Part shown: one piece after another, positions 41,020 to 64,000 of the stretch | Numbering within the stretch: the stretch's first letter is position 1 | Layout of the letters: each line of letters opens with the position of its first letter | Sequence record: PV660463 | Length of the DNA stretch: 64,000 nt | Reading direction: 5' to 3' (one strand) | Origin: Escherichia phage LF82-41 | Program-made: the position numbers and the translations under genes | The notes under the pieces: model-generated | The model's database searches: none | What the model was told of the DNA's origin: nothing | Seen by the model: only the letters and a program-made list of their open reading frames with translations

Positions 41020-41220
41020 TCACAAGTTACGTTTAAAAATTTCTGCTACTTCAAGAAGTTCTTCTTTAGTAGCTGTATCGGTTTGTATTTTATATCGAAT
41101 TTCTTTAAAGCGTTCTTTAAAGGACTCTGCTGACTCGATATCAAAAAATCTTTGGATAAGCCGGAATTCCCGGAGCACTGCTTTATCAAAAAGTTCCAAG
41201 TCCACGTTATATGTTCTCAT
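41020..41220 (-). CDS. hypothetical protein (66 aa, rIIA.1-like)
   Basis: ORF track; position. Confidence 0.5.
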   Translation of the reverse strand: MRTYNVDLELFDKAVLREFRLIQRFFDIESAESFKERFKEIRYKIQTDTATKEELLEVAEIFKRNL

Positions 41221-41245
41221 AATATTCTCTTCAGTAGATTCCTAG

Positions 41246-41296
41246 GGCACTATTACTAAAGACCATATAATCTATCATCTTATGTGTAATAGTGCC
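41246..41296 (-). repeat. 11-bp perfect inverted repeat with 29-nt spacer between glycosyltransferase gene and rIIA.1
   Basis: ggcactattac ... gtaatagtgcc. Confidence 0.6.
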
Positions 41297-41312
41297 TCAG
41301 GCTATTCAGGAT

Positions 41313-42413
41313 TTACGCTGTGAAGATTTTATCCCACATCGCAACAACTGCATCTCGGTTATACTTCTTCCATACTGCTTCAGCACGTTTAACTCGAGCT
41401 TCGTATGTGTCAGTGAATTCTAATACAGCTTTTGTGTAAAGCGCAACTACTTCTTTCTTAGGAGTAGAGGAATCAATTTCTACACGCACAGTATCTGGGT
41501 CGTATTCGAATGTCGCGTGCGGATAATCCTTAAAAACTAACTGAATCACAGGGACACCTTTAGAGATGGCTTCAATAGAACTATTCTCTACCGTACCCGT
41601 GTCAGGACACGTATTGATAAGTGCTTTAGCTGTTTTAAGACGTTCCATGATTTCACTGTGTGGAGCATCAATAATAACAGGATACTTAGCCGGCGGTGCC
41701 CATTTACTAGGACAGTATCCTGCACCATTTTCGCCTAGTGCTTTAATCGCTTCAAGAGCAACATCAGTACGACGCATTTTAGTGTCATAACGTTGTGCAC
41801 TAATAATCAGATCAGTCGCCGGAAGAACTTCAGGTTTATCATTCAAACAAATAACCGGATAATCTTCGGCTTCAAACAACGGATTTGCTCGCCAATAATC
41901 ATAATCAATTTTGCCAGTCAGACCTGAAGTCATATAACAATATTTGCGTTCAAATTCACGGAAGGCTTTAGTAGGAGCATAACTCTTACCACCGTTCTTA
42001 TGAATTTGAATAGTCTGGTCCCAAATTTGAACAATGCCACGAGATACCGGTTCAAATGGTGTTGCCATAAAATTCTTATGAACTTTAGAGAGACCTGCGT
42101 CTTTAATTGCCTGAACGGTTAGTTTGGTCGGTTCCATTGTAACAACGAAATCGTACTCATTAATGCCGGCTAGTTCAACAATCTTACGAGCCATAGTATA
42201 ACTCATACCTAGACTGAATTTAGTCAGATGACCAACAGGATGATGATTAACCTTCCAGTCACCAAACGTGTCATTATCAAAGCCGATATAATCAATATCA
42301 GCACCGATGGACACAAGATATTTCAATACATTTAAATGTACTGCTTCAAGACCACCTTGTACACGTTCTGGGTTAAATGGGACTGCGCGAGATGGGATAA
42401 ACATAACTTTCAT
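41313..42413 (-). CDS. GT-B fold glycosyltransferase (GT4-like); candidate DNA sugar-modifying enzyme
   Basis: 366 aa; N-terminal Rossmann start MKVMFIPS...GGLE; C-terminal nucleotide-sugar-binding segment GTVENSSIEAISKGVPVI resembling the GT4 consensus EGFGLVLLEAMAAGKPVI; RBS AAGG; no similarity to recalled T4 alpha-gt or beta-gt. Confidence 0.7.
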   Translation of the reverse strand: MKVMFIPSRAVPFNPERVQGGLEAVHLNVLKYLVSIGADIDYIGFDNDTFGDWKVNHHPVGHLTKFSLGMSYTMARKIVELAGINEYDFVVTMEPTKLTVQAIKDAGLSKVHKNFMATPFEPVSRGIVQIWDQTIQIHKNGGKSYAPTKAFREFERKYCYMTSGLTGKIDYDYWRANPLFEAEDYPVICLNDKPEVLPATDLIISAQRYDTKMRRTDVALEAIKALGENGAGYCPSKWAPPAKYPVIIDAPHSEIMERLKTAKALINTCPDTGTVENSSIEAISKGVPVIQLVFKDYPHATFEYDPDTVRVEIDSSTPKKEVVALYTKAVLEFTDTYEARVKRAEAVWKKYNRDAVVAMWDKIFTA

Positions 42414-42440
42414 AATTAAGCCTTATTAAAATTAAAATGA

Positions 42441-42456
42441 AGCTCCCGAAGGAGCT
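42441..42456 (-). terminator. hairpin after topoisomerase gene 39
   Basis: AGCTCC-CGAA-GGAGCT. Confidence 0.4.
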
Positions 42457-44273
42457 TAGGACATCCATTCTTTACGAAGTTCTGAATCATCACCCATCAG
42501 CATTTCAAAGAGTTCTTTCCAATTTTCAGGAAGTTTAACTACGTCGTACACAGGGTTCTGAATCATTTCACGATACTCTGACTTTTCAAGGGAGCCTAAT
42601 CCCTTGATGTATCGAATACTATGCTTAGGCAGTGTATCTTTAACTTCTTCATACTCAGCTACAGTATAAAACCATTTTTGAGTTTTGCCAATTTGTGCAA
42701 TAATTACAGGTGTTTTAACAAAGCGAATACGTCCTTGTTCAAACAATTCAGGCCAATTACTAAAGAAAGCAAGCAAAGCAGGATAAATACTTCCAAGGCC
42801 GTCATGATCGGCATCGGTCATAATTGCAATATTACGATAGTTCGTATTCTCTGCCTTTTCACCAAGAATAAGACCTGTGATAGCACAGATATCAAAGAGC
42901 TCTTTGTTCTTCATCATATCAGCATATGACATACCCCAGCTATTCATCACCTTACCACGTAATGGGAATCCGCCGTGTAGTTCACGGTCACGAACATCAA
43001 TGAGATAACCAATTGCCGAATCACCTTCTGTTAAGAACAATGTCGTATCTGCATCTTTACCACATTGGTTAGCTTTAATATGTTTATGAACCTTAGCTTT
43101 AGTTGCCTTTTTAGCTGCTTTAGTTTCTGCTGCCTTTTCTGCTGCCAATTTACGAGCTAATGCTGCTTCAACAATAGGCATAATCAAGGCTTCATTTTTA
43201 AGAAGTGCCTGAGCAATTTTCTTAGCATCTAATTGGATATGATTACGAATATCACCATACGTTGACGTTAAACGTTCTTTAGTCTGAGAATCAAAACGCA
43301 TGTTGCTCATGTCTCTAATAAACATCAACATTGTGAGACATTCTTTAACACGAGCTTTAGTGACTTCAATACCCTTATATTTCTTTTTAATACCCGGCAA
43401 AAGATGTTCGCAGATATCGTCCATTACACATTCAACATGATGACCACCATTTTTAGTATGGATGTTATTCACATAAGTTAAATGACGGAAGCCATCTGGT
43501 GATGTTGTGAATGCTATAGAGACTTTATCATTTTCTTGAATGATATTATCTTCACCAAATTGTTTAGCAAATCGTTTAAAATTACCATCAACCTTTTTAC
43601 CATTAAATGTGAACTTGATATCAGGATAAACGACTGCCAATGTTTGAAGTCGGTCTAAAGTAATATCTAAATAAATTTGAGATAAATTATGCTCTTCAAA
43701 TGAAGTGAAATCAGGAGTGAATATTACTTTAGTGCCTTTACCTTTAGATTTCTTAGAAGACCATGATTTGTTTTCCATTCCGTTTGAACAGTTAACAGTG
43801 ATTTCATTTTCGCCATCTGACGTGATGCCTGTAAACAACGTAGAGAAGATATTAGTTAAACTACTCCCGACGCCGTTCATACCACCAGTCTTGCGTTCAG
43901 AGTCATCGCCAAAGTTACCACCGGCCTTTGGAATAGTCCAGGCTGCTACAGGCCCAGGAATTTGTTCACCTGTTTGGTCTGTAACTAAACCTTGAGGAAT
44001 ACCACGTCCGTTATCTTCCACTGAAACTTGATTATTTTTAATTTGCACATCAATTTTATTTGCAAACTTAAATGATGTACGAATAGCTTCATCAACCGAG
44101 TTGTCAATAATCTCATCGATTAATTTAACCAGACCAGGAACATATTCAACTTGTTGATATTTACCAAACAAAAAACGCTCATGGGCTTCTTTGGCCGAAG
44201 AACCAATATACATGCCACTACGTTTCTTAATATGTTCTACATCTGACAGTACCTTAATTTCATTTTTAATCAT
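42456..44273 (-). CDS. 39: DNA topoisomerase II large subunit (GyrB-like), single uninterrupted ORF
   Basis: 605 aa; GHKL ATPase VSVEDNGRGIP and Toprim LFLTEGDSAIGY; corresponds to T4 genes 39+60 fused. Confidence 0.93.
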   Translation of the reverse strand: MIKNEIKVLSDVEHIKKRSGMYIGSSAKEAHERFLFGKYQQVEYVPGLVKLIDEIIDNSVDEAIRTSFKFANKIDVQIKNNQVSVEDNGRGIPQGLVTDQTGEQIPGPVAAWTIPKAGGNFGDDSERKTGGMNGVGSSLTNIFSTLFTGITSDGENEITVNCSNGMENKSWSSKKSKGKGTKVIFTPDFTSFEEHNLSQIYLDITLDRLQTLAVVYPDIKFTFNGKKVDGNFKRFAKQFGEDNIIQENDKVSIAFTTSPDGFRHLTYVNNIHTKNGGHHVECVMDDICEHLLPGIKKKYKGIEVTKARVKECLTMLMFIRDMSNMRFDSQTKERLTSTYGDIRNHIQLDAKKIAQALLKNEALIMPIVEAALARKLAAEKAAETKAAKKATKAKVHKHIKANQCGKDADTTLFLTEGDSAIGYLIDVRDRELHGGFPLRGKVMNSWGMSYADMMKNKELFDICAITGLILGEKAENTNYRNIAIMTDADHDGLGSIYPALLAFFSNWPELFEQGRIRFVKTPVIIAQIGKTQKWFYTVAEYEEVKDTLPKHSIRYIKGLGSLEKSEYREMIQNPVYDVVKLPENWKELFEMLMGDDSELRKEWMS

Positions 44274-54383: not shown

Positions 54384-54905
54384 TTAATAACCTCGGTCTT
54401 GACGTGCGAAGTTTTCAGCATTTTTCAGGTAATACAGTTTAAAGATTTCTTCTGCAGTAAGTCCAAGGCCTTGGAACATATTCAGAACAAAGTGGAGGAT
54501 ATCAATCATCTCAAATTTAATTTCAAGCTGGTCTTCAGGAGACAGTTCATCGATACGACGATTTCGATATTCAGCATGGTGTGCTTTCCATGGCTTCCAT
54601 ACAGAGCTAGCGGCTTTTTCACCGTTGGACATACCACCAAGTGAAGTCAGCAGTTCACGGAATTCATCATCAATATAATCTTTCTGATTACGCAGCCAAT
54701 CAACAACATCACCGGCAGTAGCCAATTCATCAGGATGTTTGTTATGTTCAGGCTTGTCATTTGCCAGACGAACCTGTAAAGATTTCTGCATATCAAGCAT
54801 TACCTGCAGTGGGTCTTTATCTTCGTGAATCAGAGCATTAAAATAAGCTTCTTCTGCTTTATCAACACCAGAAATAAGTTGTGAACATTCGTTAAAGTGT
54901 GCCAT
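54384..54905 (-). CDS. 56: dCTPase/dUTPase gp56 (MazG-like)
   Basis: Start set to ATG at 54905 (MAHFNEC..., RBS AAGGAAAAATA) as in T4 gp56. Confidence 0.85.
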   Translation of the reverse strand: MAHFNECSQLISGVDKAEEAYFNALIHEDKDPLQVMLDMQKSLQVRLANDKPEHNKHPDELATAGDVVDWLRNQKDYIDDEFRELLTSLGGMSNGEKAASSVWKPWKAHHAEYRNRRIDELSPEDQLEIKFEMIDILHFVLNMFQGLGLTAEEIFKLYYLKNAENFARQDRGY

Positions 54906-61328: not shown

Positions 61329-61673
61329 TTAAAAGAATTTAAATTTTTTCTTGGTTCGTTCATTAAAAGCTTGTTGTACTTGCATTGTAACACATTTTTC
61401 AACATGTGGTGCAAGTTCTGCTTTTCTGTCCTGGTCAAGAACTGCAAAGTCCATTACGATTTTACCATCAACCCAGTCTAGTTTTGTAATATAGACTATA
61501 TGATGGGAACCGTCTTCAAGTGTAATCAGAATCTCTTGAATGACATTTTCCATTGCTGAACGGACAATTTTAAGAGATTCATTAAACACTCGTTCTTTGC
61601 GAATGTCCTCCCCTTCCGAAGAAGGGGATTCATCAACGATTTCTAGATTTAAATCATCGAGATTATTCATCGA
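61329..61673 (-). CDS. 40: probable gp40 (head vertex assembly chaperone) by position
   Basis: Track ORF trimmed to internal ATG at 61673 (MNNLDDL...) to remove 150-nt overlap with uvsX; about 114 aa vs 120 aa in T4. Confidence 0.5.
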   Translation of the reverse strand, partial: SMNNLDDLNLEIVDESPSSEGEDIRKERVFNESLKIVRSAMENVIQEILITLEDGSHHIVYITKLDWVDGKIVMDFAVLDQDRKAELAPHVEKCVTMQVQQAFNERTKKKFKFF

Positions 61674-62835
61674 AATCTTCCATTTCGTCAAGGTCGTTTT
61701 CAATATCTGCTGCAGACGGAGCATCAGAAGCTTTAACAGGAACTTTAGTTGTTGCTTTGCAATTAATAAGGTCGTTAACAGCGTCATCAACTTCTTTAAT
61801 AGAAGAGATAGCACCTAGTTTATATTTAGTTTCAATTGCATCTCGGAAAGGTTTGTGTTTAAACAACGGTCCCCAGAATTCTACACAATCAGTAGCTTTA
61901 GCACGCCACGATTTCTCTTCACGAATCATTTCGCCTGTTTCTTCGTCAAGGAATTCACGAGCATACCAACCGGCTTTAGGCTTAACAACAAATCCAATTT
62001 CAGTTGCCATTTCTAACAAGCCACTGAATGGGTCGATACCACCATCAAAATTAACTGTGATTGGGAAAGTAGATTTCTCTTTAACTGTACGAGATTTTTC
62101 TGCTTTCAACGTGAAGTCATAACCGGTCAATTCTGTACCTTCTTTAACCTGACGTTTAGAGATAAAGAATACAGTGTTAGCAGAATAAAGAATACCTGTA
62201 CCACCGCCCATAATCTCTTTAGGATACAATCCGCCAATTTCCATTGCGGTATGGTTAATTGCAACACACGGAATATCTTTAATAGTCAGATACGGGGTCA
62301 CAATACGGAAAAGAGATTTAAGTGCCTTAGCACGAGACATATCACCTACAACTTTCTCGTTCAATGCATCTTCAGTTTCTTTCTTAGATGCAGTATTACC
62401 GATTGAATCGATAAAGATAATAACTTTATCACCGCGTTCAATCGCGTCAAGCTGATTAGTCATATCAACTTTAAGTTGTTCGACTGACTGAATTGGTGTA
62501 TGAACTACACGGTCTAAATCAACACCCATTGAACGAAAATAAGATTCTGAAGCACCAAATTCTGAATCATAGAACAAACAGATTGCATCTTTATATTTCT
62601 TCATATACGCTGCAACCATAGTTAGTCCAAACAACGTTTTAAAGTGTTTAGAAGGAGCAGCAAAAATAGTCAAGCCTGATTGCAATCCTGCATTCAGAGC
62701 ACCACCTAGTGCAATATTCAACATCGGAATACGAGTAGGGACTTCATCACGATTATTAAACAGCTTAGACTTAGTCAAGTCTGCAGTCATTTTAGAAGTA
62801 GAAGCTTTAATCAGACGAGATTTTAAATCAGACAT
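61663..62835 (-). CDS. uvsX: recombinase UvsX (RecA/Rad51 family)
   Basis: 390 aa; RecA-like P-loop region FAAPSKHFKT; acidic C-terminus. Confidence 0.95.
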   Translation of the reverse strand: MSDLKSRLIKASTSKMTADLTKSKLFNNRDEVPTRIPMLNIALGGALNAGLQSGLTIFAAPSKHFKTLFGLTMVAAYMKKYKDAICLFYDSEFGASESYFRSMGVDLDRVVHTPIQSVEQLKVDMTNQLDAIERGDKVIIFIDSIGNTASKKETEDALNEKVVGDMSRAKALKSLFRIVTPYLTIKDIPCVAINHTAMEIGGLYPKEIMGGGTGILYSANTVFFISKRQVKEGTELTGYDFTLKAEKSRTVKEKSTFPITVNFDGGIDPFSGLLEMATEIGFVVKPKAGWYAREFLDEETGEMIREEKSWRAKATDCVEFWGPLFKHKPFRDAIETKYKLGAISSIKEVDDAVNDLINCKATTKVPVKASDAPSAADIENDLDEMEDFDE

Positions 62836-62933: not shown

Positions 62934-63482
62934 TTAACGAGCCCATTTAATGATTTCTGTAATCAAATTATTACGTTCGCTTGCATTAAATCCTATAACT
63001 TTGTTAGAACCATCATGATTAAGTAATTGATACGTTTGGATTTTGTTATGAATTGCAAACTCTTCAAAATGTGAAATGACTGTATTAAAACCGAATGAAG
63101 ACAAAGTAATAAGGTCGTCTTCAAAACTTTCAGTCATTTCGTTACGTGTTAAAATAATTGTGAACACATCATGGTTTTGGCAAAGACGAACATAATCCTG
63201 TTCATAAACGTCAAGAACCGAGTCCGCATCTTGTCGAATACGTCCATAAACCCAGTTACTAATATATCCACGGTCTAATAGATAAATCTTAGTAGGGTCT
63301 AAATAATTCAACATCGTTTCGAAACAGCCAACTTCATTTCGAGACTTAACATCGAAACGCCCATCAACTGTTCGTTTAGGGAAATCAATCTTTACATATC
63401 TTTCACTAATTTCCATTATGTCATTAATGAAAGTTGTTTTACCAGCATTATCCGGCCCGTCTACTAAAATAATTTTAGCCAT
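62934..63482 (-). CDS. thymidylate-kinase-like P-loop (d)NMP kinase
   Basis: 182 aa; P-loop LVDGPDNAGKTT (cf. TMK IEGLEGAGKTT) and LDRGYISNWVYG (cf. TMK DRH..S..AYQG); occupies position of T4 beta-gt. Confidence 0.6.
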   Translation of the reverse strand: MAKIILVDGPDNAGKTTFINDIMEISERYVKIDFPKRTVDGRFDVKSRNEVGCFETMLNYLDPTKIYLLDRGYISNWVYGRIRQDADSVLDVYEQDYVRLCQNHDVFTIILTRNEMTESFEDDLITLSSFGFNTVISHFEEFAIHNKIQTYQLLNHDGSNKVIGFNASERNNLITEIIKWAR

Positions 63483-63483
63483 T

Positions 63484-64000
63484 TTATTCCTCGATTACGA
63501 CATCTTCGTATTTAGGTATATTATACGGCGAAGAAATTAAAGCATTAAAGTAGATGAACTCACCAAGACCTGGATGGAATACTTCTTCAGGATTTTCGAA
63601 ATATTGAATCTTCGGACGTCCTTTAAGAATTTGATAGTACTCAGTTTTAGTTGGATTAAAAATTCGAATCAGCGCTTCTTCAGGATACTTATTTCTGTCG
63701 AAACTATTATTTGGATCAGTTATATAAAGCGGTTGACCTAATTGAATTGCGCATTCAACAACTTGTTCAAAACGATAGCATGGGTCACTAATTCGAAATG
63801 GATGAAAAATACCATCTAGATGAATAGGAGCCAAATCACCTACAAGACGCTGCATGACGGAAGGACGTATAACTTTCTGCGTTACGATAATCTTATTACC
63901 ATCTGCACCTGCGTTAACCAGCACTTCTTTTTGACGTTCATTCAACACAGTAGTTTGAAGTGAACGATTAACAGACAACATGTCGGTTTTTAAGAATTCA
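63484..64000 (-). CDS. hypothetical protein, 5' end probably beyond window
   Basis: Frame stays open upstream of the track start at 63981 to the window edge with no SD; no recognisable family; not dCMP hydroxymethylase-like. Confidence 0.45.
   Translation of the reverse strand, partial: EFLKTDMLSVNRSLQTTVLNERQKEVLVNAGADGNKIIVTQKVIRPSVMQRLVGDLAPIHLDGIFHPFRISDPCYRFEQVVECAIQLGQPLYITDPNNSFDRNKYPEEALIRIFNPTKTEYYQILKGRPKIQYFENPEEVFHPGLGEFIYFNALISSPYNIPKYEDVVIEE

Follow-up and report, generated by a model that had tools for sequence, protein, structure and literature searches.

The rIIA.1-gene 39 junction of Escherichia phage LF82-41 is occupied by a gene for a glycosyltransferase, which raises the questions of which acceptor the encoded enzyme decorates, at which step of DNA modification it would act, and whether the gene is a resident of this junction or a mobile insertion. 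Which restriction, CRISPR-Cas, glycosylase and type IV systems can attack RB69-like phages is determined by the sugar chains on their cytosines, and many of these phages are candidates for phage therapy. These questions are considered here for the window, that is, the whole stretch of 64,000 nucleotides that was analyzed (sequence record PV660463). The gene is already known, having been nominated as a candidate in 2018, represented by a structure released in 2025 and re-examined in 2025-26; the value of the result for the window lies in its correct annotation, and no new question is opened by it.

Genomic context of the glycosyltransferase gene

The window derives from an RB69-like phage (Mosigvirus) and is collinear with bases 1-25,113 of RB69 at 95-96.5% nucleotide identity. 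At the glycosyltransferase locus, it shares 99.2% identity with several Mosigvirus phages and 98.7% with Mosigvirus NP. The locus contains the following features:

41020..41220, rIIA.1, the downstream neighbor of the glycosyltransferase gene (Pfam PF24210, 2e-30)
41241..41301, minus strand, long hairpin in the spacer that separates the glycosyltransferase stop from the rIIA.1 start, with arms at 41241-41256 and 41286-41301
41313..42413, minus strand, glycosyltransferase coding sequence, orthologue of RB69 ORF003c/gp3 (361/366 identity, PDB match, PHROG 8302, Foldseek GT4 neighbors)
42421..42425, minus strand, Shine-Dalgarno-like TAAGG, 7 nt upstream of the ATG at 42413, read from the sequence
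42440..42457, minus strand, stem-loop AAGCUCC-UUCG-GGAGCUU, then CAUUUUAAUU, with a 7-bp stem and a UUCG loop, overlapping the gene 39 stop codon
42456..44273, gene 39, type II topoisomerase large subunit of 605 aa, the upstream neighbor of the glycosyltransferase gene

The 366-aa ORF between rIIA.1 and the topoisomerase gene thus stands as originally predicted, with the addition of its strand, which that prediction had omitted; the interval of 41221-42455 given there corresponds to the ORF together with both intergenic spacers. The equivalent interval of T4 was said to hold gene 60 and mobA, which is correct, and 60.1 is found there as well. In the window, as in RB69, gene 39 has the unsplit 39+60 form of 605 aa, and the split of T4 gene 60, with its translational bypass element, is therefore absent from the phage. 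It also follows from the unsplit gene that no gene 60 was displaced from this junction.

The gene had further been credited with its own ribosome-binding site and with flanking hairpins, and all of these elements were recovered, the former as TAAGG at 42425-42421. The upstream stem-loop looks like a terminator or an mRNA-stabilizing element, and is annotated as a rho-independent terminator in the relative SA79RD. The downstream hairpin has 16-nt arms and a 29-nt loop, with a folding energy of -28.6 kcal/mol (z -4.6) that none of 200 shuffled sequences equaled; no U-run follows it, and it might serve in RNA processing, stability or translational coupling. Promoter matches near the gene were no commoner than in shuffled sequence, and for this reason no promoter is claimed.

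Identity and fold of the encoded protein

The window protein is identical to RB69 ORF003c/gp3 (RB69p003, NP_861693.1) at 361 of 366 residues (98.6%), and matches PHROG 8302 over residues 1-366 of 366 (E 1e-221). It also matches PDB entries 9IQZ (apo) and 9IR0 (with UDP), released on 2025-07-16 as 'phage HY126 glycosyltransferase', at ~97% identity across all 366 residues (E 5e-247). The HY126 structure is reportedly described by He et al. in Nat Chem Biol in 2026. When an AlphaFold model of the window protein was compared with known structures by Foldseek, the HY126 entries ranked at the top and were followed by GT4-type GT-B enzymes, the best non-phage match being PimA (2gej, 5e-9), then BshA, WaaG and others; the listed non-phage matches share 9-17% identity with the window protein. 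PimA, BshA and WaaG were likewise reported as structural neighbors of RB69 gp3 by Lee et al. (PMC13326640). Confidence in the model itself is low (pLDDT 60, falling below 50 over residues 109-188), because the word-indexed protein search yielded five clusters and the six-sequence alignment used as input was correspondingly shallow. It was used purely as a Foldseek probe, and the weakness of the model is why the assignment of fold rests on the deposited structure. From the ~97%-identical crystal structure and the Foldseek neighbors, the protein is a GT-B, GT4-like, UDP-binding glycosyltransferase, in agreement with the class originally proposed.

A Pfam scan of the protein returned no family even at E values up to 10, Glycos_transf_1 included, and therefore no family could be assigned from sequence alone; when the six-sequence alignment was used as a profile against the PDB, 9IQZ was recovered again and nothing else. 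The expectation that the protein would be unlike the T4 glucosyltransferases was borne out by BLASTP, which detected no similarity to alpha-gt or beta-gt (E 7.1 and 2.9, respectively). The C-terminal segment that had been likened to a donor-binding consensus, GTVENSSIEAISKGVPVI at residues 273-290, holds up in part. It includes E281, which is invariant among homologues and corresponds to the ribose-binding Glu of GT-B enzymes as described by Thomas et al. 2018 (PMC6024577), but the E-x7-E motif of GT4 enzymes is incomplete: E281 is its second Glu, whereas the position of the first is taken by Gly273, and E276 is conserved instead, being likewise invariant among homologues.

Cytosine arabinosylation in RB69-like phages

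Arabinose was reported in RB69 DNA by Thomas et al. 2018 (PMC6024577), who nominated ORF003c, with a predicted GT-B fold, as the arabinosyltransferase on the basis of HMM and HHpred similarity to alpha-gt-like enzymes at the remote profile level. The modified base was described by Lee et al. (NAR 2026; PMC13326640) as mono- or poly-arabinosylated 5-hydroxycytosine (5hoC) in the DNA of RB69 and Acinetobacter phage DLP3, with the arabinose ether-linked to C5; RB69 DNA contains mono- and di-arabinosyl-5hoC and DLP3 DNA the tri-arabinosyl form, while the DNA of Thanatos, which encodes a single arabinosyltransferase of the gp46:47 type, is mono-arabinosylated. According to the same study, 5-hydroxy-dCMP is made by RB69 gp48, a homologue of thymidylate synthase; gp46:47 was proposed as the first transferase and gp3 as the second, and RB69p003 is listed in Table 1 as 'beta-arabinosyltransferase 2'. 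For the bond to the first sugar, the study favors a beta linkage, probably at C3. In vitro, DLP3 gp76 and gp77 supplied with UDP-arabinofuranose added one further arabinose to RB69 DNA, while the single DLP3 transferases were inactive alone and bare 5hoC DNA likewise gave no activity as a substrate (PMC13326640). A paper on the Durham Collection (PMC13390438) reported 5-ara-dC and 5-ara-ara-dC at a ratio of 1:4 in Mosigvirus NP and considered the earlier hmC assignment for RB69 to be erroneous. As related in a T4 paper citing Mahler et al. 2025, deletion of the Aat arabinosyltransferase in coliphage Bas46, an arabinosyl-5hoC phage, renders it sensitive to a plasmid-borne defense. For the window enzyme, the suggestion of a non-canonical hmC transferase was thus correct as to DNA hypermodification with a sugar other than glucose, as expected of an RB69 gp3 orthologue, but not as to the base, which is 5-hydroxycytosine with an ether link rather than hmC.

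Annotations of the gene in GenBank are heterogeneous. Most records use 'hypothetical protein', others 'ATP-binding protein', 'glycosyltransferase' or 'putative GDP-mannose-dependent alpha-(1-2)-phosphatidylinositol mannosyltransferase', and at least one has 'putative hmC-arabinosyltransferase', which retains the outdated hmC label. The Acinetobacter homologues are labeled 'putative DNA alpha-glucosyltransferase'.

Several other parts of the arabinosylation pathway, listed here with the adjoining uvsX gene, are located in the window:

54384..54905, minus strand, gene 56 dCTPase orthologue (RB69p028; tblastn, 99.4% identity)
61663..62835, uvsX, adjoining the orthologues of RB69 gp45 and gp46:47
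62934..63482, minus strand, gp45 orthologue, a thymidylate-kinase-like nucleotide kinase, 98.4% identical to RB69p045
63484..64000, minus strand, gp46:47 orthologue, 3' part (171 codons), open to the window end

The gene 56 dCTPase is a member of the cytosine-replacement pathway in Table 1 of PMC13326640. The arabinosylation cluster next to uvsX starts with the gp45 orthologue, and the window includes its first two genes, the second of which, gp46:47, is cut at base 64000. That no beta-gt adjoins uvsX had been pointed out originally, and the start of the arabinosylation cluster is what occupies this place. WFbE185, the closest relative, and RB69 both have the complete cluster, and the gp46:47 orthologue of the former is a full-length single ORF of 299 aa. 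The gp46:47 orthologue (63484-64000, minus strand; L001 24597-25497) runs continuously across the point at which RB69 ORF046c and ORF047c are split, and as far as the sequence goes this continuity agrees with the published view that the split in RB69 is a sequencing error.

Phyletic distribution and proposed role

A tblastn search with the window protein identified gp3-family genes in 211 phage records, which fall into two groups: ~155 records at the Mosigvirus level (matches with at least 90% protein identity), each with one copy, and 56 Acinetobacter phages, each with matches of ~42% identity at two places. In Acinetobacter phage Berthold, these correspond to the tandem paralogues gp074 and gp075, which are 41-43% identical to the window protein and are located inside the arabinosylation cluster, adjoining the kinase, a gp46:47-type transferase, the thymidylate-synthase homologue and sugar-nucleotide genes, in the same cluster positions as DLP3 gp76 and gp77. 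Transfer of arabinofuranose from UDP-arabinofuranose to DNA is thereby documented for Acinetobacter-phage paralogues with 42% identity to the window protein. The gp46:47-type transferase, which has no sequence relation to the gp3 family, is more widely distributed, being identified in 348 phage records from more than 10 host genera, including Escherichia, Klebsiella, Enterobacter, Serratia, Proteus, Yersinia, Erwinia and Acinetobacter; in most cases, a gene of the thymidylate-synthase type is annotated under the matched region or next to it. Among these phages, the cluster transferase is thus universal, and the gp3 family is accessory. At the level of at least 95% identity, the cluster transferase was found in ~153 records, essentially the same set as the ~155 with the gp3 gene. 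The number of gp3-family copies (zero, one or two) tracks the reported length of the sugar chain, which is mono-arabinosyl in Thanatos, di-arabinosyl in Mosigvirus and tri-arabinosyl in DLP3. As a comparison of sequences, this phyletic pattern supports a function of gp3-type enzymes in extending the chain on DNA from UDP-arabinofuranose.

It is quite likely, in our judgment, that the window gene encodes a DNA arabinosyltransferase of the Mosigvirus gp3 type with a role in the chain-extending, second-sugar step. The notion that it is the transferase touching the base would then have to be abandoned, as both the proposal in PMC13326640 and the phyletic pattern point to a probable action one step later. 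Under the proposed mechanism, dC would be replaced by 5-hydroxy-dC, which the thymidylate-synthase homologue makes as a mononucleotide, and gp46:47 would place the first arabinose on the C5 oxygen. The gp3-type protein, a soluble GT-B enzyme with two Rossmann-like domains and the UDP-sugar bound in the cleft between them, would then move a second arabinofuranose from UDP-arabinofuranose to the first sugar on polymerized DNA. The expected product, di-arabinosyl-5-hydroxycytosine, accounts for most cytosines in these phages, and the longer sugar chain protects their DNA against restriction enzymes, CRISPR-Cas and DNA-glycosylase defenses. We infer the second-step activity of the window orthologue and the exact linkage that it would form, in keeping with the role proposed in PMC13326640. 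Activity of gp3 on its own is an assumption, since DLP3 gp76 and gp77 work only together. A stronger version, in which the Mosigvirus enzyme is a self-sufficient add-on extender that became detached from the cluster and was parked beside a hot spot of homing endonucleases, seems to us unlikely; if true, chain length could be picked up or shed as a unit among phages under pressure from defenses that read the length of the glycan.

Two other roles have to be weighed against chain extension. According to one, the protein is the first and only base-directed transferase, which attaches arabinose or another sugar straight onto the hydroxylated cytosine, a base taken at that time for hmC. This is how ORF003c was presented in 2018, as 'the' arabinosyltransferase (PMC6024577), and how some GenBank records with the 'putative hmC-arabinosyltransferase' label still have it, but the base is 5hoC and not hmC (PMC13326640, PMC13390438), and every arabinosylating lineage, including those without a gp3 homologue, has an unrelated second transferase beside the 5hoC synthase. 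As mono-arabinosylated Thanatos moreover encodes solely the cluster-type enzyme (PMC13326640), a base-directed gp3 is very unlikely. The other role would be the glycosylation of a non-DNA acceptor, such as a host envelope lipid, LPS or a protein, with a coincidental link to DNA modification. The nearest solved folds are indeed lipid or LPS transferases, for example PimA and WaaG, and the gene is located among early genes ~20 kb from the arabinose cluster. However, its sole homologues outside Mosigvirus are those of Acinetobacter phages, where they lie within the cluster for DNA arabinosylation; the DLP3 representatives have activity on DNA in vitro (PMC13326640), and the gp3 family is limited to two phage groups that both have multi-arabinosyl DNA, so that a non-DNA acceptor appears extremely improbable.

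Plasticity of the rIIA.1-gene 39 junction

The gene had been described as 'inserted' and, together with its flanking hairpins, as consistent with a mobile cassette. A recently acquired cassette that is bounded by hairpins and moves between phages would fit the plasticity of this junction, at which T4 has 60, 60.1 and mobA and, in some Mosigvirus phages, gene 39 is separated from the glycosyltransferase gene by a gene for a homing endonuclease. It would also fit the scar in Tequatrovirus fPS-90, where an endonuclease gene is accompanied by the hairpin, the ribosome-binding site and the first ~46 nt of the glycosyltransferase gene, as well as the different genomic place of the Acinetobacter-phage homologues, from which it follows that a relocation took place at some point. 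Against this, essentially all Mosigvirus records have the gene, it is found at the same rIIA.1/gene 39 junction in each of those inspected, and the ~155 gp3 records and ~153 cluster-transferase records are essentially one set. Signals of foreign DNA around the gene were searched for in GC content and flanking direct repeats and none was found: its GC content of 0.39-0.41 compares with 0.35-0.41 in the neighbors, and no direct repeats flank it. The hairpins are ordinary intercistronic elements of the T4 type, and it was a 46-nt fragment, not the whole gene, that crossed into Tequatrovirus. With gene 60 not displaced either, we regard a recent mobile cassette as improbable. The gp3 gene may nevertheless have left the cluster long ago; such an old relocation is plausible because the Acinetobacter homologues lie inside the cluster.

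At the junction of Yersinia phage fPS-90 (LR215723.1, locus 1440-1620), a homing endonuclease gene adjoins gene 39. After the endonuclease gene come the Mosigvirus UUCG hairpin, the ribosome-binding site and ~46 nt of the gene start, fused to a remnant of the 3'-end of gene 39, and this scar corresponds to window positions 42367-42457. In some Mosigvirus phages, a homing endonuclease gene of equal size (798 nt) is found at the same position, abutting gene 39 (the locus listed is that of phi25-307). Judged by its sequence, the fPS-90 junction looks like a co-conversion scar of endonuclease-driven exchange between genera, and not like mobility of the transferase gene.

A separate irregularity was observed in Shigella phage JK45 (MK962757.1, 2520-4123), a record classed as Tequatrovirus with a Mosigvirus-like transferase locus. 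Besides the full transferase gene, it has another copy of the 3' part of this gene, 136 codons long, in a tandem duplication of ~500 bp that includes the intergenic hairpin and may be real or an assembly artifact.

Comparison with known systems

The window gene and RB69 ORF003c/gp3 are the same gene in sister phages: their length is equal, both lie between rIIA.1 and gene 39, and the proteins differ by five substitutions. The phage HY126 glycosyltransferase, with ~97% identity and a GT-B fold with bound UDP, shows no difference of substance. DLP3 gp76 and gp77, to which Berthold gp074 and gp075 (41-43% identical to the window protein) correspond, are full-length homologues with a different arrangement: the DLP3 pair consists of two tandem in-cluster copies that are jointly required and add a third sugar, whereas the window phage has one copy ~20 kb from the cluster and belongs to a group that stops at two sugars. 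The bacterial enzymes PimA, BshA and WaaG act on small-molecule or lipid acceptors, and the window protein lacks the first Glu of their E-x7-E motif.

The alpha- and beta-glucosyltransferases of T4 share the logic of a GT-B enzyme that acts on phage DNA once it has been replicated and glycosylates modified cytosines from a UDP-sugar, but they transfer glucose rather than arabinofuranose, and they do so to the hydroxymethyl group of hmC and not to a sugar on 5-hydroxycytosine. In T2 and T6, the beta-1,6-glucosyl-alpha-glucose transferase acts as a second transferase by building on a sugar that the base already has, giving gentiobiosyl-hmC. The gentiobiosyl modification is also mentioned in PMC13390438. 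The T2/T6 transferase is a functional analogue of the window enzyme, from which it differs in the chemistry of both the sugar and the base.
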